64,000 bases of DNA, from NCBI GenBank assembly GCA_963726255.1, contig CAVSBL010000002.1, positions 576,001 to 640,000 of the forward strand. The letters run 5' to 3'. The notes beneath the pieces were generated by a model. It was not told the DNA's origin and made no database searches. It was given only the letters and a program-made list of their open reading frames with translations. This document shows, piece after piece, positions 4,282 to 17,736 of the stretch (position 1 is the first letter of the stretch; the number at the start of each line of letters is the position of its first letter). The DNA is from Candidatus Bathyarchaeota archaeon (GTDB taxonomy: Archaea > Thermoproteota > Bathyarchaeia > 40CM-2-53-6). The position numbers and the translations under genes are program-made.

Positions 4282-5370
4282 ATGGCCGCCAAGGGTGAGT
4301 CCCTCCTCGAAACCCGAGATCTAACGGTCAATTTTCACACGTACCGCGGCGAAGTAAAGGCGCTAGATCACGTCCAACTAAGTCTCTACCCACACGAAGT
4401 GCTCGCCCTGGTAGGAGAGTCGGGCTGCGGAAAATCCGTTACAGCCCTTACAATTCTCGGCCTCCTCCCAGGCAATGCTCACGTATTAGAAGGACAAGTC
4501 CTCTACAAGGGTGAGGACCTGCTCAAGAAGACCCCCGAACAAATGCGGGAAATCCGAGCGGAAGGGATCGCGGCAATCTTCCAGGATCCCATGACCTTTC
4601 TCAATCCTGTCCTCACGGTCGGCGTTCAACTGAAAGAAGCGTTCCTAGTTCAAAAGCACCTCTGGACGGCTCAGACACGCGACAAGTCAGCAACCGGAGC
4701 AGTAGATGCGCAAATTAAGGGATTCCTACTCGAAAAAGAAACCGAAAAGGAAGGTTCAAAGCGAGAATCCGGAAGGGAAAGGGAGAAAATGGCTGAAGAA
4801 CTCTCGAAAGATATACTGAAGCTCGTGCGGATTGCGGATCCTGAGCGAATATTGACTCAATACCCCCATGAATTGTCAGGTGGTATGCGCCAGCGGTGCA
4901 TGATCGCGATGGCTTTGGCGAGACGGCCTTCGATCATCGTTGCTGATGAAATCACAACTGCTCTCGATGTTACGGTACAAGCTCAGATACTGACTTTGCT
5001 TAAGGAGCTAAGAGATACCATTGACGCTTCTTCGATTCTCATAACCCATGACTTGTCGGTCGCTGCGGAAACAGCCGACAGAATCGCTGTGATGTACGCC
5101 GGCCACGTAGTGGAGGTGGCGTCCACAATTGAGTTGTTCAGAAAGCCCTTGCACCCATATACTCAGCTACTGATGAAATGCATCCCTGACGTTAGGAAAC
5201 CCGTAACGCACCTCGAATCAATCAGCGGTACCGTTCCCGACCTAATCGATCCACCTACGGGATGTAGGTTCCACCCCCGATGCCCATTTGCGATGGAGGT
5301 TTGCAGGACAACTAAGCCGGTCCTAAAGGACATAGGGAACGGCCACCTGGTGCACTGCCACCTATATTGA
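4282..5370 (+). CDS. dppD: Peptide ABC transporter ATP-binding subunit
   Basis: GESGCGKS Walker A, LSGGMRQR signature, C-terminal GCRFHPRC...CHLY; ATG at 4282 follows the corrected dppC stop. Confidence 0.93.
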   Translation: MAAKGESLLETRDLTVNFHTYRGEVKALDHVQLSLYPHEVLALVGESGCGKSVTALTILGLLPGNAHVLEGQVLYKGEDLLKKTPEQMREIRAEGIAAIFQDPMTFLNPVLTVGVQLKEAFLVQKHLWTAQTRDKSATGAVDAQIKGFLLEKETEKEGSKRESGREREKMAEELSKDILKLVRIADPERILTQYPHELSGGMRQRCMIAMALARRPSIIVADEITTALDVTVQAQILTLLKELRDTIDASSILITHDLSVAAETADRIAVMYAGHVVEVASTIELFRKPLHPYTQLLMKCIPDVRKPVTHLESISGTVPDLIDPPTGCRFHPRCPFAMEVCRTTKPVLKDIGNGHLVHCHLY

Positions 5371-8539: not shown

Positions 8540-8687
8540 GAAAAGACGCCTCGAAGGCAGCGTCGGAGTCGGGTCTGGTTAACGTTTCGGTCTCAACGAC
8601 GCTATGACACGACTTGGAATCGCTGGACGCTATTTGCAACAAAGAATAAACACATAGAATGGTGTTAGGAGAGCGGAGCAGTCAGAC

Positions 8688-9305
8688 GTGGACGCAAAGA
8701 ATCGCAGCGACAAGGAAGAACTATGTGACATTCTCCTAAGAACGGGGAGCCTGAAGTTCGGAACATTCAAGCTCGCGAGCGGTATCCTGAGCCCATATTA
8801 CGTTGACCTGCGAATTATCCCAAGCGACCCCGAAGCATTCCGAAGGGTGATTAACTACTACCTCGCCCTCGTTGAGCCGAACATGGTAAAACGTGTTCAG
8901 CGTTTGGCTGGCATACCAACTGCCGGCATCGCTTACGCGGCTGTGTTGGCGTTCAAACTCTCTAAGCCGTTCCTCTACGTTCGAAAGGAAGTGAAGGAAC
9001 ACGGACGTGAGCGAAGGATCGAAGGCCTTCTGCAACCAGGCGACAAGGTCCTAGTCTTAGATGATGTTGCGACTACGGGGAAGAATATCATAGAAGCTGC
9101 TGAGGCGATCCGAGCGGAGGGCGGAGTCGTTGAGGACGCCGTCGTGTTGCTGGATAGGCTGCAGGGAGGAGCGGTAAACCTTCGGAAGATTGACGTGAAG
9201 CTCCACGCTTTCACCACTATGAAACAAATCGCAGACAGGCTGGCGGCTTTGGGCACAATCGACGAAACTCAGCACAAGGCAATTGTCGGGCAGATCGTCA
9301 GCTAG
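8688..9305 (+). CDS. pyrE: Orotate phosphoribosyltransferase
   Basis: FGTFKLASG..SPYYVDLR, RKEVKEHG, PRPP motif VLVLDDVATTG. Confidence 0.95.
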   Translation: MDAKNRSDKEELCDILLRTGSLKFGTFKLASGILSPYYVDLRIIPSDPEAFRRVINYYLALVEPNMVKRVQRLAGIPTAGIAYAAVLAFKLSKPFLYVRKEVKEHGRERRIEGLLQPGDKVLVLDDVATTGKNIIEAAEAIRAEGGVVEDAVVLLDRLQGGAVNLRKIDVKLHAFTTMKQIADRLAALGTIDETQHKAIVGQIVS

Positions 9306-9371
9306 AAGCCAGATCGAGACGCGTGCTAACCAACGATCCGCACTTCGAACTCCGAATGGCTATGGCAAAAC

Positions 9372-11651
9372 CTAGGCCCAGTAGGTGACTGGCCACTCAG
9401 CATGGTTCGCCTGGCCGGAATCTCTCAACGCGGCTAAATCATATCCGAAGGGTAGTAGAAGGTTGACAGTTGAGGAAAGAAGCAGATCGACATACCTCTC
9501 TGAGTCGAAGACGGATCCTTCATCCATCAGCTCGGTGGGGAGAGCTCGGTTATGGTTTATTCTGGACTTGTCGTAGGTTAAGATGTAGTTGATTGTTTGC
9601 CCGGCGTGTACCTCCATGCCTTCCGCGGCGAGGTGCTTAGCCGCGATGGCTTGCGGAACCAGGTTTCTGTATTCGTTGGGATTCTTGCTGAGGTGTTTCT
9701 CGATCACGAGCTCTGCGACCGGAATGTTTCCGGTTCTGATTAGGTCAACGTATGACTTAACGACCGCCAGCACTTCGGGTATGAGCGCCATGAATTCCTC
9801 TGAATTGTTCGCCTTCGAGAGTGTGGTTAGCACATCCGTTTGACACCGCCTGACTATGCCGGCAGTGTCATGGCGGCGGAGGTCGATTCCTCTAACTTTG
9901 AGCTTGCCGTCCTGGAAGACTCCGTAGTACCGGTTGAGGACGGGGATTCGCGGGTCCGTTCGCGAGTTCAGGAACACAATCCACTTGTAGCGCCCCTCGA
10001 ACGCTATCGGGAAGTGCAGCTGCTCCTCTATCGTGCGGCATAGCTCCTCGTACTCATCTGGTGTTGCGTTAGGTTTCCAGAGCCACATCGAATCCACGAT
10101 GCCGTGTATGAGTTTGAAGCAATTGGATTCTGCAATCGCGACCGCTTCTCGCAGGATCTTCCGGGAGTAGGCACAGGTTGCGATGTGTGCGTCGATTCTC
10201 CCAAACCGCGCGTTCTTGAAGCCTAGGTATCCAATTGCCCGCCGCGTTCGAGGCGGCTATGAGCAGACTAGGATCCATTTGAGCGCGGCTTGGCGTTGAT
10301 CGTACCGCAACCTTGTAGGTGGGTCCATGGCTTCTTTTTTGTACTTCTTGTAAAGCGCACGTTTTCGGAGTAATATATCGAGCGACCTGGGTACTATGCC
10401 ATTCCATCTTTCACAAACATTCCACCCAAGCTCCGGTACTCGACTAACGGAGTCTGGGCAGCAGTTGCAGCGTATGGTTTCTCCGCTCAGGTTCATGTTG
10501 CGCATTATAGTTGGGTATAGGGAGGAGAAGTCGAGTTCGGCGACGGAGTCGTGTAGGCCGAATTTTGGTTCGTAAATGAAGCCACCGCGGTCCGCTAGTA
10601 TGAGTTCGTTTCCGTTCTTCCACTCCTCGGGCTCGTTCTTGTTCCAGGGGATTAATACGTCGGCTTTGACGGCGTGGTAGAGTTGGAGGGACGTCATGCT
10701 GGTGCCAATCGTCGTTCGCGAGGCCCTCTGCAATGGGATTATGCAGGTTCGGGCCACCTCGAAGAGACCTTCGAGGCCGCAGTCGCTGCTGATGAATCCA
10801 TTCGCCTCGTCCACATGCAACCGGCCCAGTAGTCTTGCGGCGGTTTGCTTGAAGAGTATCTTCCCGTACGAAAAGTAACTGTGGCCTTGCACTTCGTAAA
10901 CCCGAAGCGGCGAATCTTCCCTACCGAGAACCATTTTGTGGAGGATGTGGTGGTGTTGAGCACGCCTGGCCAAGTAGGGGAAAATGAAGGAGTCTCCGCC
11001 TTCCGTCAAGACTACATCCGGGTCAATCTCGCGGAAGGCTGTGACGAGTTTGTTGAGCTTGTCAAGTTCGCTGCCCGAGTCGAAAATTATGGTATCATTC
11101 TTGGTTTGGATTTTGATTAAGTCTAATTCATCTTCAAACCTTGAGATCCTGCAAGTCTTCTTAGTGCTGATTTCTAGCCGTATGTTTCGAAGTGTTGGCA
11201 GTTCGTAGTCGATTGTTTCACGGGAATCCTTGATGGTCCACTTAACGCGGCCATGAGATGCGTCAGCCTCGACGAACGCTAGGGGGAATAGGTCGTTGTG
11301 GTAGAGGTACATCTGAATTGATGGGATATCTACGTCGTAGAGCCTGAACTTCGAGTATCCACCATGCCGGAGGATCTTCCGTGCCAGAGTTTGGGCTTCT
11401 GATTCGTCGTTTACTTCAACTTCGAGAACGTTACTCTTAGTCTGGTCGCCTGCCCTCTCGAATTTCTCGACGAATGTGCATGATGGAATGAATGGTTGGA
11501 GGTTTAGGAGGTCGTCACGTTCTCCGCCAATGTGGATTCGCGGCTTCCAGCCGTCAACTAGCTTGACGCATGATCCGTCGCGCTGCTTGAGCCAGACAAC
11601 CATTTGGCTGGCTTTAGGGTAGAGATCCAAGATCCAGCCTTGATGTTTCAA
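9372..11651 (-). CDS. polB2: Family B DNA polymerase, PolB2 group; two exons (11651-10259 and 10234-9372), 751 aa after splicing
   Basis: ELDFSSLYPTIM (motif A); KWILVCS-[intron]-FGYLGFKNARFGRIDAH (motif B); HGIVDS in place of YGDTDS; NRYYG, KVRGIDLRRHD; the two track ORFs are in the same frame. Confidence 0.9.
10235..10258 (-). other. Putative 24-nt BHB pre-mRNA intron in polB2
   Basis: Sense GCUC-AU^A-GCCGC-CUCGAAC-GCGGC-GGGC-AA^U; removal gives TCA TTT GGA (S-F-G) and deletes the in-frame TAG. Confidence 0.85.
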
Positions 11652-11902
11652 AGGCCCCGCTCTTCGATTCGCTTCTCTAACTCGATGATTTTCTTGTGGT
11701 GCGCGAACAACATCGAAATAATCAGGGGCACCTGTTTTATTGGTGAGGCCATTACACTCGCCGCCGACGCTAGCAACTTACACTGATTCAACATATCTTC
11801 GAAAATGATTTTGTCTTCTTGCCTGAGAAATTCCTGAAACCTTTTCAATTTTTCAACCTCGGCCTCTACGACCATTCTCCATGACGGGATTGTTCGTCCC
11901 AT
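11648..11902 (-). CDS. PolB2-associated small alpha-helical protein (arCOG07300-like), 84 aa
   Basis: MGRTIPSWR...F..LR.ED...F..M motif; stop/start overlaps with the radA-like gene and polB2. Confidence 0.82.
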   Translation of the reverse strand: MGRTIPSWRMVVEAEVEKLKRFQEFLRQEDKIIFEDMLNQCKLLASAASVMASPIKQVPLIISMLFAHHKKIIELEKRIEERGL

Positions 11903-12651
11903 CACAGGTAACTCTCCAAAGTCTCTACCCCAAGCGAGGATGCTGTGGCGGTGCGTGGGGGAAGCCACGGATGTTTCAGTAGTGAAACTCGGGTCAGGCC
12001 GCCTTTTTCCTCGATTGTTGCGAAGACATGTACAGCCTGTGTAAGGATGCGATCCATTAGCGCGTTTCTTGATTCTATGTTCGTCGCAATTATCAGACAT
12101 TTTTGTTGTCGAGCGAGGCTTGCGAGATTTCTCGCGGCTTTCGCGAAAATGCGAAGTGCATCCTCTTTATCCTCGCCCCGTATATCCGGGTCGCAGTAGA
12201 GTTGCGTAATGTCGGAGACGACAACGAGTTTCGCCTTGAATTTCTTTATCGCAAGTTGGAGTTTGTCGGTTATGAGGCATGCGAGTTGGTGGTGGGTGAA
12301 AGCCCTACTGACATGCAGCCGTTCTAACACTGTCTCCGTGTCAAGGCCATGCTCAACTGAACGGTCTGAGATATAGTAAGGGTCGAAGAGGTTGCCGCCG
12401 TCAACGAATACCGTATCGCAGTCCGGACCCAATGGTTGCGGAAGTGTCGCCCTGACGCAGAGTAGCATAGAAAGGGCGTGTGCAGGTTTACCCTGAAACG
12501 TAGCAAACTGGCCGAAGTTGAGCCTCAAGATGCCGTCTAAGGCTTCCATGCCAGAGGTCAGATCAGGTTGCAACTGTTGACGCTTGCTTAGCAGAAGGTC
12601 GTTAACTTTGACGAAATTTTCGACAGCTACTTCACAATTCAATGGAGCCAT
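11902..12651 (-). CDS. RadA/RecA-fold protein lacking Walker A (PolB2-operon type)
   Basis: LTSGMEALDGIL, VFVDGGNLFDPY, LERLHVSRAFTHHQL, LVVVSDI; ATG at 12651 preferred over the track start. Confidence 0.82.
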   Translation of the reverse strand: MAPLNCEVAVENFVKVNDLLLSKRQQLQPDLTSGMEALDGILRLNFGQFATFQGKPAHALSMLLCVRATLPQPLGPDCDTVFVDGGNLFDPYYISDRSVEHGLDTETVLERLHVSRAFTHHQLACLITDKLQLAIKKFKAKLVVVSDITQLYCDPDIRGEDKEDALRIFAKAARNLASLARQQKCLIIATNIESRNALMDRILTQAVHVFATIEEKGGLTRVSLLKHPWLPPRTATASSLGVETLESYL

Positions 12652-12677
12652 AGAATTGCCGTGAAGAATGCAAGCAG

Positions 12678-12717
12678 ATAATCTGGGAGACCAGATTATG
12701 CGCATCTCTGTCAGAGA
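12678..12717. promoter_or_regulatory. Two palindromes upstream of the polB2 operon (candidate operator or 5' UTR hairpins)
   Basis: ATAATCTGG-gaga-CCAGATTAT (12678-12699) and TCTCTG-t-CAGAGA (12705-12717); minus-strand TTTACAT at ~12725-12731. Confidence 0.5.
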
Positions 12718-12793
12718 CACGTGAATGTAAAGCGTTCTGCATTTTGAGGCGTTCACTGAGGCTGGAAGTTGTTACGGAGTAAGGTGGTTCAAC

Positions 12794-13768
12794 CTACCGT
12801 CTTGCGAGTCGCTTATTGACTAACTTGCGGCCGGCAGAGTAAGGGTCGATTTTGTTCGCCGCTACCTGTTTCATGATTTTCCGGAATGTTTCTGACGATG
12901 CCATTTCCTTCAGCGATATGTCCTCAAAGTATTGCTGGGCTGCATCGAGCACTTCGGATCGCAACCAATTCTCATCTGCCCTGCGTGATCCAACTGATTC
13001 TTTTACGTACTTTGAGTGTTGGTTTATTGCTTCTATAAGCCCCGTAACTCCTTCTCCCGACCTTGCAATAGTCTTCAAGACGCGGGGTCGCCAACCGGTA
13101 ACCGGTTCGGCCATCATGACCATTTGGTGAATTTGCTGGGCCGCTCGTTCCGCATTTTCCATATCGGCCTTATTGACGACGAAGATGTCACCGATTTCCA
13201 TAATGCCCGCTTTTAATGCTTGAATCTCATCGCCTAACCCGGGTGCGGTTACGACGATTGTGGTATGGGCGAGTTCTTTTACGTCGACATCGGATTGGCC
13301 CGCTCCAGCTGTTTCAACGATAACGTAGTCCATTGCGGTTGCGTCTAAGATTCGAACCGCGTCTTCTGTTGCCCTGGCGATTCCGCCGAAATGGCCGCGA
13401 GTAGCCATGCTTCTAATGAACACTCGAGGATCTGCTGCTAGGTTTCCCATCCTAATTCGATCTCCCAGCAAGGCACCACCTGTTATCTGACTTGATGGGT
13501 CAACGGCTACGATTCCAACTCTGCTGCCAGCATCTCTGTATCGCTCTGCAAGTTGTGCGATGAGCGTGCTCTTTCCGCAGCCTGGGGGGCCCGTTATGCC
13601 GATAACCTGAGCCTTGCCCGCACGCCAATACAGGCTAGAAAGAATCACAATTCTTGAACGGGGATCATTCTCGGCTGTTGACATTAGCTGGGATATGGCA
13701 CGCCGGTCGCCGTGTACAGCTTTTTGAATTAGTCTTTCAACGGGTGATTTCGTATGCGGCTTGGGCAC
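12794..13768 (-). CDS. meaB: Methylmalonyl-CoA mutase-associated GTPase
   Basis: GITGPPGCGKST, AVDPSS..TGGALLGDRIRM, FIRSMATRG, ETAGAGQS, VVNKAD. Confidence 0.95.
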   Translation of the reverse strand: MPKPHTKSPVERLIQKAVHGDRRAISQLMSTAENDPRSRIVILSSLYWRAGKAQVIGITGPPGCGKSTLIAQLAERYRDAGSRVGIVAVDPSSQITGGALLGDRIRMGNLAADPRVFIRSMATRGHFGGIARATEDAVRILDATAMDYVIVETAGAGQSDVDVKELAHTTIVVTAPGLGDEIQALKAGIMEIGDIFVVNKADMENAERAAQQIHQMVMMAEPVTGWRPRVLKTIARSGEGVTGLIEAINQHSKYVKESVGSRRADENWLRSEVLDAAQQYFEDISLKEMASSETFRKIMKQVAANKIDPYSAGRKLVNKRLARR

Positions 13769-13792
13769 GAATGTGAGCGCCTCGTCATTTTC

Positions 13793-15381
13793 CTAGATGA
13801 TCGTCTTGGGATGGAACTCTCCATACTCTTCTCTTATGACATCGCTTATTTCGCCAGTAGTAGCCTTAGACCTCACGGCGTCGAATATCAAAGGTATTAC
13901 GTTGATGTTCCGCTCAAGAGCATTCTGAAGCTTTCTGAGGCTACGAAGCAGCTGAGTTTTCCGACGGTTTCGTCTGAAAGCTTCTGTGCGGGAAATCTGC
14001 CGACGTACTACCAGGGGGAGATCTTATGAATCTTGATTTGATACGGTTTCGGGTCAACATATACGTTGACCCCAACAATTTTGATTGCGCCAGATTCTAT
14101 TCCAATTTGCCTCTTGAAAGCGCTATCGCGAATCTGCTTTTGAATATACCCACTCTGAATCGCTTTAACAGATCCTCCCAGTTTTTCAACTCGACCTATT
14201 TCAGCCCGGGCCTCATTTTCCATCTGGCTCGTGAGGTATTCGAGGTAGTAGCTTCCGCCCAAGGCGTCAACTGTCTTCGTAACACCACTTTCGTGGGCAA
14301 TTATCTGCTGCGTTCGAAGGGCTATTTTCACGGCTTCTTCTGTAGGCAGGGATAACGCTTCGTCAAGGGAATTTGTGTGCAGCGACTGTGTTCCCCCTAA
14401 GACTGCCGCCAGAGCTTGGATGGCTACTCGGACGATGTTATTCTGCGGTTGCTGGGCAGTGAGCGTTTCTCCGCTGGTTTGCGTGTGGAAGCGTAATTTC
14501 ATCGCCTCCGGGTCATTTGCGTGAAATTCCTCTTTCATCATGTGTGCCCATATGCGGCGGGCTGCCCGGAATTTGGCTACTTCTTCTAGGAAATCGTTGT
14601 GGCATGCAAAAAAGAAGGACAGATGCGGCGCGAACTCGTCGATCTTCAACCCGCGTTGGATGCAAGCTCTCACGTACTCCTTTGCGTTCGCAAATGCGTA
14701 AGCGAGTTCTTGGACCGCGCTTGAGCCGCTTTCTCTGATGTGATATCCGCTTATGCTGATCGGGTGCCACATCGGCATTCTCTTGGCGCAAAATTCGATA
14801 ATGTCCACGGACAGCCTCAACGATTGCTCGGGAGGAAAGATGTAGGTATTGCGCGCTATGTACTCCTTGAGGATGTCATTCTGTGTCGTTCCACGCAGTC
14901 GTCCAAGCGGGACTCCCTGCGATGTTCCGACCGATGCGTACATTGCTAACATTATGGCAGCCGTGGCGTTGATGGTCATCGAAGTACTGATCCTTCCAAG
15001 GTCGATTCCCTGGAAGAGTAGTCTCATGTCATTCACAGAACTGATCGGTACTCCTACCCGACCGACTTCTCCTTCAGCCCGAGGGCTGTCGGAATCATAG
15101 CCCAATTGAGTTGGAAGGTCAAAGGCAACGCTAAGCCCCGTTTGTCCTTGTTTAATCAGGAATCTGAAACGCCGATTCGTAGCCTCGGCGCTGCCAAACC
15201 CGGAATATTGCCTCATCGTCCAAAGTCGGGAACGGTACATCTCGGAGTAGATTCCGCGCGTAAAGGGGAATTTCCCCGGTTCGCCCAAATTGCGTTCGAG
15301 GTACCGTGGGTCAGAATCCCTTTGGTCGTAGAACTTTTTCACTGCAAAGCCCGAAGCAGAGAAGATCCTTTCTTCTTTCAA
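13793..15381 (-). CDS. Methylmalonyl-CoA mutase large subunit; one base missing in a homopolymer at 14014-14018
   Basis: PFTRG, TMRQYSGF, QNDILKEYIARNTY, SISGYHIRE, GGTQSLHTN; the C-terminus ...ATTGEISDVIREEYGEFHPKTII* continues in another frame to 13793. Confidence 0.9.
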
Positions 15382-15491
15382 AGTTGGACGAACCTCCTAG
15401 TGGACCTAGCACGTATATGACTTTGAAGGGAAAAGCCCTCAAATCACCCAAAAGAACATTAACGCCCATCTTCTGAAGTTTCTAAGTTCGT

Positions 15492-17261
15492 GTGGAACAA
15501 ATGCCGCCGAAGAGAAAAATGAATTACTGGGCGAAGAAAGTTGAGCAAATAGTAGCCGCGAGAAAACGACAAGGCCCACTTTACGATCGCAAGCAGCTTC
15601 GTTCGATAGTTGAAAAACAGCGCAAATGGAAAGAAGGCACGCTAAAGAAATGGTTGGCGAAGGCGCCCGAGCGCAAGGAAGAATTCGAGAACCCGTCCGG
15701 AATCCCCCTAAGACGGATATACAGTCCTACGGACGTGTCGTACCAAGCTTATTCCGAGAACGTTGGACTCCCGGGCGAATTTCCATACACCCGCGGGGTC
15801 CACCCAACCATGTACCGGGGCCGGCTATGGACTATGCGAATGTTCTCCGGTTACGGTACTCCCGAGCAAACCAACGCACGACTCAAGTACCTTCTGAAGG
15901 AAGGCGAGACTGGACTGAGCATTGCTTTCGACATGCCGACTTTGTATGGCGTTGACGCAGACCATCCAAGGGCTGAGGGAGAGGTTGGCAAGTGCGGTGT
16001 TTCGGTATCCTCACTTAGAGACATGGAAGTGGTCCTCGATGGCATTCCGCTCGATGAAGTCAGCACTTCAATGACGATCAACGCGCCTGCTTCTGTTCTA
16101 ACCTGTATGTATGTTGCAGCCGCTGATGAACGCGGGATAGCGCCGAAGAAACTGCGCGGCACGGTGCAAACCGACATTCTCAAGGAGTATGCAGCCCAAA
16201 AGGAGTGGGTGTACCCACCCGAAGCTCACCTCAGAATCATCCGCGACATGATTCTGTACTCCACAAAGCACCTCCCACAATGGAACTACGTCAGCGTAAG
16301 CGGATACCATATTCGCGAAGCGGGTTCAAGTGCCCTACAGGAATTGGCTTTCACTTTGGCCGATGGGTTTGCCTACGTTGACCTAGGACTGCAAGCTGGG
16401 TTGAAAGTAGACGATTTCGTCCCCAGGCTATCCTTTTTCTTTAACTGTGGTATGGACTTCTTTGAAGAGATTGCGAAATTTCGGGCTGCCCGACGGGTTT
16501 GGTCTAAAGTTCTCAAAGAAAAATATAATGCGAGAAACCCCAGGTCAACGTTAATGCGGTTTCACACTCAGACCTCAGGCGTGTCTTTGACATGGCAACA
16601 ACCACTCAACAACATTGTAAGAACTACTATTGAGGCCTTAGCCGCAGTTTTGGGCGGAACACAATCATTGCACACGAATGCGTACGATGAGGCATGGGCT
16701 CTACCTACAGAGCAAGCCGCTCTAATTGCCCTGAGAAGCCAACAACTCTTGGCTGAAGAGACCGGGGTTGCTGACGTCATTGACCCCCTCGGTGGATCAT
16801 ACTATGTTGAATGGCTAACGGATGAAATGGAGCAGCGAACATACGAGTATCTTGCAAAAATCGAGGGCCTCGGCGGTATTCTGGCTGCCATCAAGACAGG
16901 TTTCATTCAGAGGGAAATCGCAGATACTTCATACAAGTATCAAAGGCAGATGGAAGAAGGCAAAAGGGTTATTGTGGGAGTTAACGCCCACCAAATGAAT
17001 GAAGCATCTCCTATTGAAACGCTAAGAATCGACGAAAAGATACGCAACAGCCAAGTCGAGAGGTTGAAAGAAGTCAAGAAAAACAGGGATGCTACAGCAG
17101 TGAAAAACTCTTTAGAAGAACTCCGCTTATCTTTCCTGGATCCTGATTCGAACTGCATCTACCCGATGCTTAAGGCCGTAAAATCCTATGCAACATTAGG
17201 AGAAATTGTGGACGTTGGAAGAAGGGTGTTCGGGGACTGGAAGGAGCCCTCGATACTGTGA
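15492..17261 (+). CDS. Acyl-CoA mutase large subunit with isobutyryl-CoA mutase (IcmA)-type specificity residues
   Basis: PYTRG, TMRMFSGY (Phe at the Tyr89-equivalent site), QTDILKEYAAQKEW (Gln at the Arg207-equivalent site), GGTQSLHTN. Confidence 0.88.
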   Translation: MEQMPPKRKMNYWAKKVEQIVAARKRQGPLYDRKQLRSIVEKQRKWKEGTLKKWLAKAPERKEEFENPSGIPLRRIYSPTDVSYQAYSENVGLPGEFPYTRGVHPTMYRGRLWTMRMFSGYGTPEQTNARLKYLLKEGETGLSIAFDMPTLYGVDADHPRAEGEVGKCGVSVSSLRDMEVVLDGIPLDEVSTSMTINAPASVLTCMYVAAADERGIAPKKLRGTVQTDILKEYAAQKEWVYPPEAHLRIIRDMILYSTKHLPQWNYVSVSGYHIREAGSSALQELAFTLADGFAYVDLGLQAGLKVDDFVPRLSFFFNCGMDFFEEIAKFRAARRVWSKVLKEKYNARNPRSTLMRFHTQTSGVSLTWQQPLNNIVRTTIEALAAVLGGTQSLHTNAYDEAWALPTEQAALIALRSQQLLAEETGVADVIDPLGGSYYVEWLTDEMEQRTYEYLAKIEGLGGILAAIKTGFIQREIADTSYKYQRQMEEGKRVIVGVNAHQMNEASPIETLRIDEKIRNSQVERLKEVKKNRDATAVKNSLEELRLSFLDPDSNCIYPMLKAVKSYATLGEIVDVGRRVFGDWKEPSIL

Positions 17262-17293
17262 AGTTTGGAGGTGGGACAATCTCGACAACACGG

Positions 17294-17736
17294 TTGACGA
17301 CCAAGAAAATTCAGCAGAGAAAGATTAGGGTGCTTGTGGCAAAGCCCGGGCTCGTGTGAATCAACGGCTAAACGGGCATGACCGTGGCGCCCTCGTCTTG
17401 TGTAGGGCCCTCCGAGATGCTGGTATGGAGGTCATCTACGCCGGACTCTTAGCCGGCCCAGAGCAAGTTGCTCAAATGGCCATAGACGAAGACGTTGACG
17501 TTGTTGCGATGAGCTTGCTCAACGGCGCACACATGACCGCCTTCCCGAAGGTCGCAAAGGCACTCAAGGAACATCAGGCAGGCGACATCCTGCTTGTAGG
17601 GGGCGGCATTATCCCTGAAGAGGATAAACCGAAACTCGAGAGATTGGGTATAACGGGGAATTTCGGCCCAGGCACCTCTCTGCAGACGATCATCAATCAC
17701 ATAGTAGGACGCGTTCGGAAGGAACGTTGGAAGTAG
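17294..17736 (+). CDS. Cobalamin-binding small subunit of acyl-CoA mutase; two exons (17294-17354 and 17372-17736), about 141 aa
   Basis: Spliced KIRVLVAKPGLDGHDRGA (DxHxxG), LRDAGMEVIY, SLLNGAH, GGGIIP, FGPGT; TTG start is inferred. Confidence 0.9.
17355..17371 (+). other. Putative 17-nt BHB pre-mRNA intron in the B12-binding subunit gene
   Basis: GCCCG-GGCU-CG^U-GUGAAUCAAC-GGCU-AA^A-CGGGC; removal gives CTC GAC GGG CAT (L-D-G-H). Confidence 0.87.

Follow-up and report, generated by a model that had tools for sequence, protein, structure and literature searches.

The window analysed here is a stretch of 64,000 nucleotides (nt) from a Candidatus Bathyarchaeota archaeon (assembly GCA_963726255.1, contig CAVSBL010000002.1, positions 576,001 to 640,000), and it holds two protein-coding genes that are each interrupted by a short insert: polB, which encodes a family-B DNA polymerase, and the gene for the B12-binding small subunit of a mutase. 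The source genome (G000, in which the window lies on contig C2) comprises 2.42 megabases (Mb) in 5 contigs, with a given contamination/duplication figure of 9.3%. Here we describe the two inserts and their counterparts in related genomes, and we weigh the reading of both as bulge-helix-bulge (BHB) introns of pre-messenger RNA (pre-mRNA). A preliminary description of the window had reported inserts of 24 and 17 nt, on opposite strands and in unrelated genes, which split a codon after its first base and end in AA, and the sequence confirmed all of this; the polymerase matches PF00136 and PF03104 and the mutase subunit matches PF02310. The features are as follows.

9372 to 10234, minus strand: polB 3' exon, stop codon included (PF00136 positions 282-450; NF004418 positions 438-703 of 717)
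10235 to 10258, minus strand: putative 24-nt BHB intron in polymerase motif B (from the sequence, a minimum-free-energy structure that holds the motif, and same-site inserts in relatives)
10259 to 11651, minus strand: polB 5' exon, covering the exonuclease domain and the beginning of the polymerase domain (PF03104; PF00136 positions 41-159; NF004418 positions 11-435 of 717)
17258 to 17354, plus strand: mutase small-subunit 5' exon (frame runs on into the 3' exon once 17 nt are removed)
17355 to 17371, plus strand: putative 17-nt BHB intron (from the sequence, same-site inserts in relatives, and helix pairing)
17372 to 17736, plus strand: mutase small-subunit 3' exon (PF02310 positions 12-115 of 121; TIGR00640 positions 14-130 of 132)

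Structure of the two inserts

Gene calling gave polB as two open reading frames (ORFs; 10257-11651 and 9372-10097, minus strand), which are a single frame interrupted by 24 nt. The 5' exon terminates at 10259 with ...TGC TCA T, where the last T is the first base of a Phe codon; the insert runs from 10258 down to 10235, starts with AG so that a TAG stop spans the junction, and terminates with AA; and the 3' exon begins at 10234 with TT GGA TAC..., where TT provides the last two bases of the Phe codon. When the 24 nt are removed, the protein reads ...LVCS-F-GYLGFKN..., with the Phe codon split after its first base, and the two exon halves match adjoining stretches of the NF004418 profile. The preliminary description called the enzyme a damage-tolerance polymerase; its closest matches among solved structures are ordinary family-B polymerases of archaea (E ~1e-18). 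The first residue after the junction aligns with residue 495/496 of solved archaeal B polymerases, a position that we take to be polymerase motif B.

The mutase small subunit starts at GTG 17258 or TTG 17294 and is the B12-binding part of a methylmalonyl-CoA-mutase-type enzyme. Its 5' exon terminates at 17354 with ...GGG CTC G, the final G being the first base of an Asp codon, and its 3' exon begins at 17372 with AC GGG CAT GAC.... The insert between them ends in AA and places a TGA stop one codon past the junction. Removal of the 17 nt gives GLDGHDRG, with the Asp codon split after its first base.

Both sites have a canonical BHB motif with all four central pairs, in which one flanking helix is solid (the inner at polB, the outer at the mutase, 5 base pairs (bp) each) and the other is weak. 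At polB, the central helix GCUC/GGGC pairs 10264-10261 with 10240-10237 (4/4 pairs), the inner helix pairs 10257-10253 with 10245-10241, the bulges are AU|A (10260-10258) and AA|U (10236-10234), and the local minimum-free-energy (MFE) structure includes the motif. At the mutase site, the outer helix GCCCG/CGGGC pairs 17344-17348 with 17373-17377, the central helix GGCU/GGCU pairs 17349-17352 with 17366-17369 and has two G-U pairs, the bulges are CG|U (17353-17355) and AA|A (17370-17372), and the inner helix has just 2 bp. EndA, the tRNA splicing endonuclease, cleaves between the second and third base of each 3-nt bulge (PMC2738675, excerpted text). At both sites the insert boundaries dictated by the protein coincide with these cut positions, and they are the sole boundaries that restore each protein. 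The chance of a 4/4 central helix together with a flanking helix of 5 bp or longer, at a fixed position in this genome, is 3.3e-4 for an insert of 24 nt and 1.6e-4 for one of 17 nt.

The insert sites among relatives and the competing explanations

To compare the sites among relatives, we searched a panel of 41 genomes, G000 included, for both genes, and we measured helix conservation as the percentage of cells that pair at the true register as compared to registers in which the partner strand is slid, together with a covariation score set against 500 shuffles. The mutase subunit is present in 25 of the 41 genomes, and 20 loci were read. An insert in the same codon was found in 13 of these, in G000 and 12 genomes of the same genus, with lengths of 16 nt (2 loci), 17 nt (8), 18 nt (2) and 23 nt (1); the remaining seven loci, two from the same genus and five from other genera, have no insert. 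The mutase helices are paired in 97.2% of cells as compared to 19-36% when the partner is slid, and the loop is variable. Synonymous sites that form the helix read CCC GGG in the intron-bearing genes and CCT GGT, CCT GGA or CCA GGA in the intron-less orthologues.

For polB, all 41 genomes gave a match; 25 loci were taken and 24 of them align from the first residue. Eleven of the 24 carry an insert of 20-26 nt in the same codon (ten in the genus of G000, one in a second genus), 11 have no insert, and two have an intein instead. A metagenome set of 42 loci, of which 36 were counted because the match starts at the first residue, gave an insert of 22-32 nt in 23; these represent 14 distinct sequences, every one with a 4/4 central helix. 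In these sequences 95.2% of cells are paired as compared to 29-60% when slid, and covariation scores 0.153, a value reached by 0/500 shuffles (mean 0.082), with just one pair altered on both sides, in five cells. Central-helix pairs are retained in 100% of cells at both the polB and the mutase site.

In a tree of the 24 polB C-terminal exons, every intron-bearing gene falls within one 16-row clade (support 100/99), which also includes four intron-less genes and one intein-bearing gene. The intron label requires 4 changes on this tree, and at least two are forced by well-supported branches; thus, intron gain and loss have occurred, as reported for cbf5, the only archaeal protein gene for which an intron of this kind had been firmly established. 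The two intein-bearing loci (genomes G023 and G040) have a LAGLIDADG intein in motif B that terminates in ...HN directly before SFGYLG and ends 4 nt upstream of the BHB-intron site:

G023, L037 1486-3834, minus strand: polB intein locus (Pfam Intein_splicing, LAGLIDADG_3)
G040, L038 3-2126, plus strand: polB intein locus (Pfam Intein_splicing, LAGLIDADG_3)

The metagenome polB loci L265 and L267 likewise show ...HN, here preceding CF-GY.

Read-through of the inserts is precluded by their lengths, of which 16, 17, 20, 23, 26, 29 and 32 nt cannot be divided by 3. This bears on translational recoding, in which the ribosome would either bypass the insert in the manner of phage T4 gene 60 or decode the TAG of the in-frame 24-nt insert as an amino acid. 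A stop past the junction beside a hairpin resembles what is reported of the gene 60 bypass, CTA occurs near the 3' end of the G000 mutase insert, 24 nt is a multiple of 3, and three further in-frame stops in well-aligned conserved G000 genes (an epimerase-like gene, a CBS-domain gene and a small phosphatase-like gene) are all TAG:

G000 C2:805305, plus strand: in-frame TAG
G000 C2:382760, minus strand: in-frame TAG
G000 C2:1742923, plus strand: in-frame TAG

However, take-off and landing codons are not kept: 10 of the 13 mutase inserts show GCC, and no Leu codon, before the 3' AAACGG, and there is no TCA after the polB insert. A hop would also yield Asn rather than Asp, and polB inserts of 20, 21, 23 and 26 nt are incompatible with in-frame reading. 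Pyrrolysine reading of TAG is unsupported, the best match to PylS in G000 being 28 bits against a cut-off of 178. Recoding has, in our judgement, barely any chance of being the explanation. Self-splicing group I or group II introns were rejected, the inserts having just 16-32 nt; the ribozyme core of either group takes hundreds of nucleotides.

The polB exons are open over 430+262 codons in 10 of the 11 intron-bearing loci. The ratio of nonsynonymous to synonymous divergence (dN/dS) from G000 is 0.10/0.13 for G014 and 0.10/0.27 for G021, and dS is saturated in the remaining 7 pairs computed; the exons are under purifying selection, with a dN/dS of about 0.1. The idea that the inserts are old scars in dead genes can draw on the many broken genes in this metagenome-assembled genome (MAG), which has about 20 frameshift-like breaks relative to G039, a genome from another family of the same order, and on the disrupted 5'-exon frame of the intron-bearing polB of G003. 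But pseudogenes would not be expected to stay open over 692 codons in ten loci with this dN/dS and saturated dS, nor to hold an insert at one codon as its length and loop change, and a like insert is found in the essential cbf5 gene in 30/30 loci read. Decay is thus a scarcely credible account of the inserts.

A stop lies at the junction or one codon past it in all 11 insert-bearing polB rows, and exactly one codon past it in all 13 mutase rows (TAA in 8, TGA in 3, TAG in 2). Such stops would also be expected if these were split genes, with the insert as a stop-containing spacer between two polypeptides that assemble or of which only one is used; split family-B polymerases occur in some archaea, and in G000 a GTG within the 17-nt insert opens the downstream frame. 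That GTG is not retained in relatives (G014 has GCG TAA), however, and the first in-frame ATG, GTG or TTG of polB comes 45 codons past the junction, yet conserved residues start at the junction itself. The breaks fall within motif B and the B12-binding motif rather than at domain borders, and a spacer needs neither BHB helices nor retained synonymous exon sites. We therefore regard split genes as very unlikely.

DNA contigs from two other studies hold both inserts, ungapped; X2 contigs cover 8600-10286 and 17317-17645, and X4 contigs cover 9835-10286 and 14755-17390. An assembly or sequencing artefact of the long-contig MAG would find its precedent in the 1-nt errors that do exist here, both in the roughly 20 other frameshift-like breaks and in a gene that lies between the two inserts:

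13769 to 15381, minus strand: second mutase large-subunit gene, with a 1-nt error in a homopolymer (C5) that disrupts it at about 14012

One additional base is present at 14012/14013 of the window in all 4 sequencing runs compared. An intron was rejected for this break (about 14008), where no BHB fits and where the frame change and the runs point to a 1-nt error in the C run. The remark in the preliminary description that the rest of each gene is intact thus holds for polB and the mutase small subunit but not for this neighbour (14008-15381). An artefact at the two insert sites themselves can practically be dismissed, as both inserts are retained in the independent DNA contigs and turn up again in many further genomes and in contigs from metagenomes.

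Several observations weigh against reading the inserts as BHB introns. At the mutase site, the MFE structure lacks the BHB motif (z = 0.40), and the canonical structure, at -12.4 kcal/mol, lies 3.4 kcal/mol higher than the local MFE of -15.8 kcal/mol. Folding energy at the polB site is unremarkable (z = -1.20), and the outer helix there is weak, with helix 2 paired in 63% of cells among the genome loci. None of the mutase pairs is altered on both sides, the polB genomes alone give thinner support than the metagenome set (one such pair), and kinship among the sequences inflates the measures of conservation. The polB of G003 has 18 stops in its 5'-exon frame as read. Among the 21 runs listed, there is one RNA library, a Nanopore metatranscriptome available as contigs. 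The spliced joint is absent from it, a result that has no weight for polB, whose site is uncovered there, and a contig over the mutase site (17233-17461) retains the 17 nt without a gap. The check on junction reads that the preliminary description had proposed thus returned no junction at either site. Contigs drop rare RNA forms, and the same run also yields a contig of 4.1 kilobases (kb) that spans genes of either strand, which leaves no means of separating DNA carry-over from precursor RNA; the unspliced contig is weak evidence at most.

Taken together, these data indicate that both inserts are very probably genuine BHB introns in the pre-mRNA of protein-coding genes, because their position is conserved as length and loop vary, their helices are kept, and their host genes are under purifying selection.

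Splicing genes, further probable introns and their number in the genome

G000 has one RtcB gene and two genes of the EndA family (PF01974), one of which exceeds the TIGR00324 cut-off and one of which falls below the EndA cut-off and weakly matches the beta subunit. This complement would fit a two-subunit EndA, the kind that accepts relaxed motifs, and bears on the question of EndA architecture that had been raised alongside the inserts. The gene above the cut-off lies at C2:748,2xx on the minus strand. The beta-like gene (C2:1451462-1452022, plus strand) adjoins an mtnA-like gene (C2:1450232-1451284, minus strand), an adjacency that is probably coincidental.

Two further BHB inserts were found, one in G000 itself and one in G039:

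G000 C2:296552-296570 (L182 1480-1498), plus strand: cbf5 19-nt BHB insert, splitting GHGGTL-D-PKVTG
G039 C1:123783-123807 (L065 3783-3807), plus strand: mtnA/eIF-2B-like 25-nt BHB insert, splitting the THCN-AG motif

The cbf5 insert lies between the first and second base of the catalytic Asp codon and forms a central helix CCCU/GGGG and an inner helix GAC/GUC; the crenarchaeal cbf5 intron has the same position (PMC2738675, excerpted text). We searched 61 genomes of the order, of which 56 matched and 30 loci were read, and found an insert of 17-21 nt in 30/30. Covariation scores 0.332, which 0/500 shuffles reach, as compared to 0.121 when shuffled and at most 0.069 when slid, and five of 8 pairs are altered on both sides. 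The lineage must splice mRNA by the BHB route, because cbf5 cannot function without the Asp codon. Outside the order, the excerpted text of PMC2738675 scores Thermoproteales, Cenarchaeum, Nitrosopumilus and Korarchaeum as having no cbf5 intron. The mtnA-like insert surfaced without a motif search; its BHB is canonical, with CUGC/GCAG as the central helix and 6 bp in the inner one. The insert is kept in 3/3 genomes of the family of G039 and is missing from the G000 orthologue.

All four intron sites (cbf5, polB, mutase and mtnA-like) fall within the most conserved motifs, and mtnA alone was found without looking at motifs. An AA end and a stop at or right after the junction had been described as common traits; they do hold for both insert families of the window, but among the cbf5 inserts AA ends just 5/30 and no stop occurs in 14 of the 30 stretches read. 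Judging from their distribution, the introns differ in age, the cbf5 intron occurring order-wide, the polB intron in a portion of a single family and the mutase intron in a single genus. Lineage-wide mRNA splicing of the BHB kind, as first suggested from the window, is borne out by the cbf5 loci and by the mtnA-like insert elsewhere in the order, but G000 has few introns.

In G000, we found three introns (cbf5, polB and mutase small subunit), and the set is small. Three is a lower bound, as the homology surveys covered genes with a counterpart in G039 or G015 and exons of at least 80 codons; the mutase 5' exon is itself shorter than this limit. When we compared G000 to the whole of G039, 1,040 of 2,262 G039 ORFs were matched in G000 and 1,563 of 8,232 G000 ORFs were matched in G039. 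The polB insert was the sole intron-like insertion in G000, and the breaks of 1-2 nt in conserved genes, about 20 in number (for example C2:342000, 531100, 918350 and 2053810), are probably long-read indel errors. When G015:C2:1-400000, from the same genus, was set against G000, neither sequence had an insertion of at least 10 nt relative to the other. A further search, aimed at introns that the compared genomes share, took 150 pairs of adjacent conserved ORFs in G000; 41 of these have some BHB-like join, but cbf5 is the sole case with a conserved motif across the junction; the remaining joined pairs show, by eye, the pattern of stop, ribosome-binding site and start.

Scans for the motif itself stayed at decoy level. 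When a BHB motif was required to join two frames of 100 or more open codons each, 1984 true matches were obtained as compared to 1992-2019 for four decoys with shifted cuts, and the background of this ORF-only scan is too high to be informative. After filtering by codon usage, 95 matches remained as compared to 78-88 for decoys, and all three known introns were missed. Fifteen of the 95 candidates were chosen by eye and 10 of these were tested against Pfam: none was a split gene. Seven had differing families on the two sides, and so are ordinary neighbouring genes, one had a one-sided match and two had no match. The genome-wide scan against controls that had been proposed as a check thus gave no excess over decoy geometries, and the expectation of many micro-introns was not sustained, the surveys having yielded three introns beside the frameshifts. 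Second copies of the three intron sequences were also sought in the genome, with chance-level matches alone (best 15 nt, E = 0.044).

Several individual candidates were rejected. An HflX-like candidate (C2:1299290) merely lacks 1 nt that G004, G014 and G015 have. Candidates at C2:1460790 (IDH-like), 1336480, 2361950 and 2351760 lack a persuasive motif and are consistent with frameshifts or with variable regions, and those of G039 at C1:537450, C5:18567 and C1:417298 resemble gene boundaries or fusions. ARAGORN with its intron option gave 35 transfer RNAs (tRNAs), 31 of them intron-bearing and some with implausibly long introns, and this output was not relied on; the 64-kb window contains 0 tRNAs.

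Other observations concern the genome at large. A strong BHB-like join of 36 nt with an outer helix of 7 bp occurs at C2:728876 (plus strand), beside a sequence that we take to resemble the 3' end of 16S ribosomal RNA (rRNA), and this join is presumably an rRNA-processing stem rather than part of a gene. In the window, an ABC-type gene (4653-4852, C2:580653-580852, plus strand) exceeds its G039 counterpart by about 123 nt, a multiple of 3, in the stretch that separates two aligned blocks. The small contigs C1, C3 and C5 duplicate portions of C2 or of each other, with an identical break at C1:6000 and C5:5000 and with the junction at C3:8603 equal to that at C2:1157107, and these repeats are consistent with the contamination/duplication figure of the genome.

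Proposed splicing route and comparison with known systems

By analogy with the crenarchaeal cbf5 intron, we propose that the transcript folds locally into two 3-nt bulges flanking a 4-bp helix, in which the last bases of the exon would pair with the 3' portion of the intron and which the inner helix (polymerase) or the outer helix (mutase) would stabilise. A two-subunit EndA would then cut each bulge between its second and third base, and RtcB would ligate the exons, so that motif B of the polymerase regains its Phe codon and the B12-binding motif its Asp codon; the roles of both enzymes at these sites are inferred from the cbf5 intron. An unspliced message would stop at the junction codon or one codon beyond it.

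A broader and rather doubtful speculation is that BHB mini-introns of this archaeal order are slowly mobile elements that settle in conserved catalytic or essential codons, spread by reverse splicing or recombination, and are precisely lost, with younger ones gaining a junction stop as a fail-safe or as a handle by which output depends on EndA and RtcB. The sites cited for it are the cbf5 Asp, polymerase motif B, the B12-binding Asp and the mtnA THCN motif. Inteins use sites of this kind as well, and sister lineages within one polB clade have either an intein or, 4 nt away, a BHB intron.

The host genes newly added by this analysis are polB, the mutase small subunit and the mtnA-like gene, together with a cbf5 intron in Bathyarchaeia at the crenarchaeal codon. 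If the intron reading is true, the splicing of mRNA with the tRNA machinery is no oddity of one gene but a recurrent trait of archaea that have a two-subunit EndA, and annotation of MAGs would take such genes for split genes or pseudogenes. Caution is needed, as most 'broken genes' of long-read MAGs are indel errors, and intron claims therefore need conservation evidence. Comparative series of 13 to 30 sequences are now usable for deriving substrate rules.

Watanabe reportedly described an intron in cbf5 pre-mRNA of Crenarchaeota in 2002. The statement in the preliminary description that cbf5 alone is firmly established agrees with two later papers: in its excerpted text, the 2020 paper names cbf5 as the only gene with such an intron in its coding sequence, plus one case in a 5' untranslated region (UTR) (PMC7714728), and the excerpt of a structural paper of 2025 cites cbf5 papers alone for mRNA (PMC12397907). 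The full-text literature, which mostly excludes subscription journals, gave no report of introns in the polymerase, the mutase, mtnA or Bathyarchaeia.

The inserts of the window are like the crenarchaeal cbf5 intron, as the excerpted PMC2738675 presents it, in being short, free of ORFs and within coding sequence; in having a (relaxed) BHB partly made of exon bases, with cuts between the second and third bulge residues; in a host with a hetero-oligomeric EndA; in lying in a catalytic motif after the first codon base; and in patchy gain and loss among relatives. They differ in their hosts, polB and a B12-binding mutase subunit (with an mtnA-like gene in another genus), and in their occurrence in Bathyarchaeia. 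Unlike the cbf5 inserts of this order, with no stop in 14 of the 30 stretches read, the polB and mutase inserts keep a stop at the junction or one codon past it.

The mRNA of HVO_1309 in Haloferax volcanii has a BHB intron in its 5' UTR (Schwarz 2020, PMC7714728, excerpted text) and is likewise an mRNA that serves as substrate of the tRNA splicing endonuclease besides tRNA and rRNA. In contrast to that leader intron, the polB and mutase inserts interrupt codons, so that splicing would be required for the protein. Archaeal non-canonical tRNA introns and rRNA-processing BHB share the same motif and presumably the same enzymes, and the insert sizes lie within the tRNA intron range of 11-175 nt given in the excerpt of PMC2738675. 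Unlike in tRNA and rRNA, the substrate here would be a translated message, the exon bases of the helix are also constrained by codons, and no second copy of the introns was found in the genome. Inteins and homing introns of family-B polymerases likewise interrupt the most conserved motif; inteins, however, are removed from the protein, whereas the BHB introns would leave the RNA; these introns are free of ORFs, and nothing in them points to a homing enzyme.

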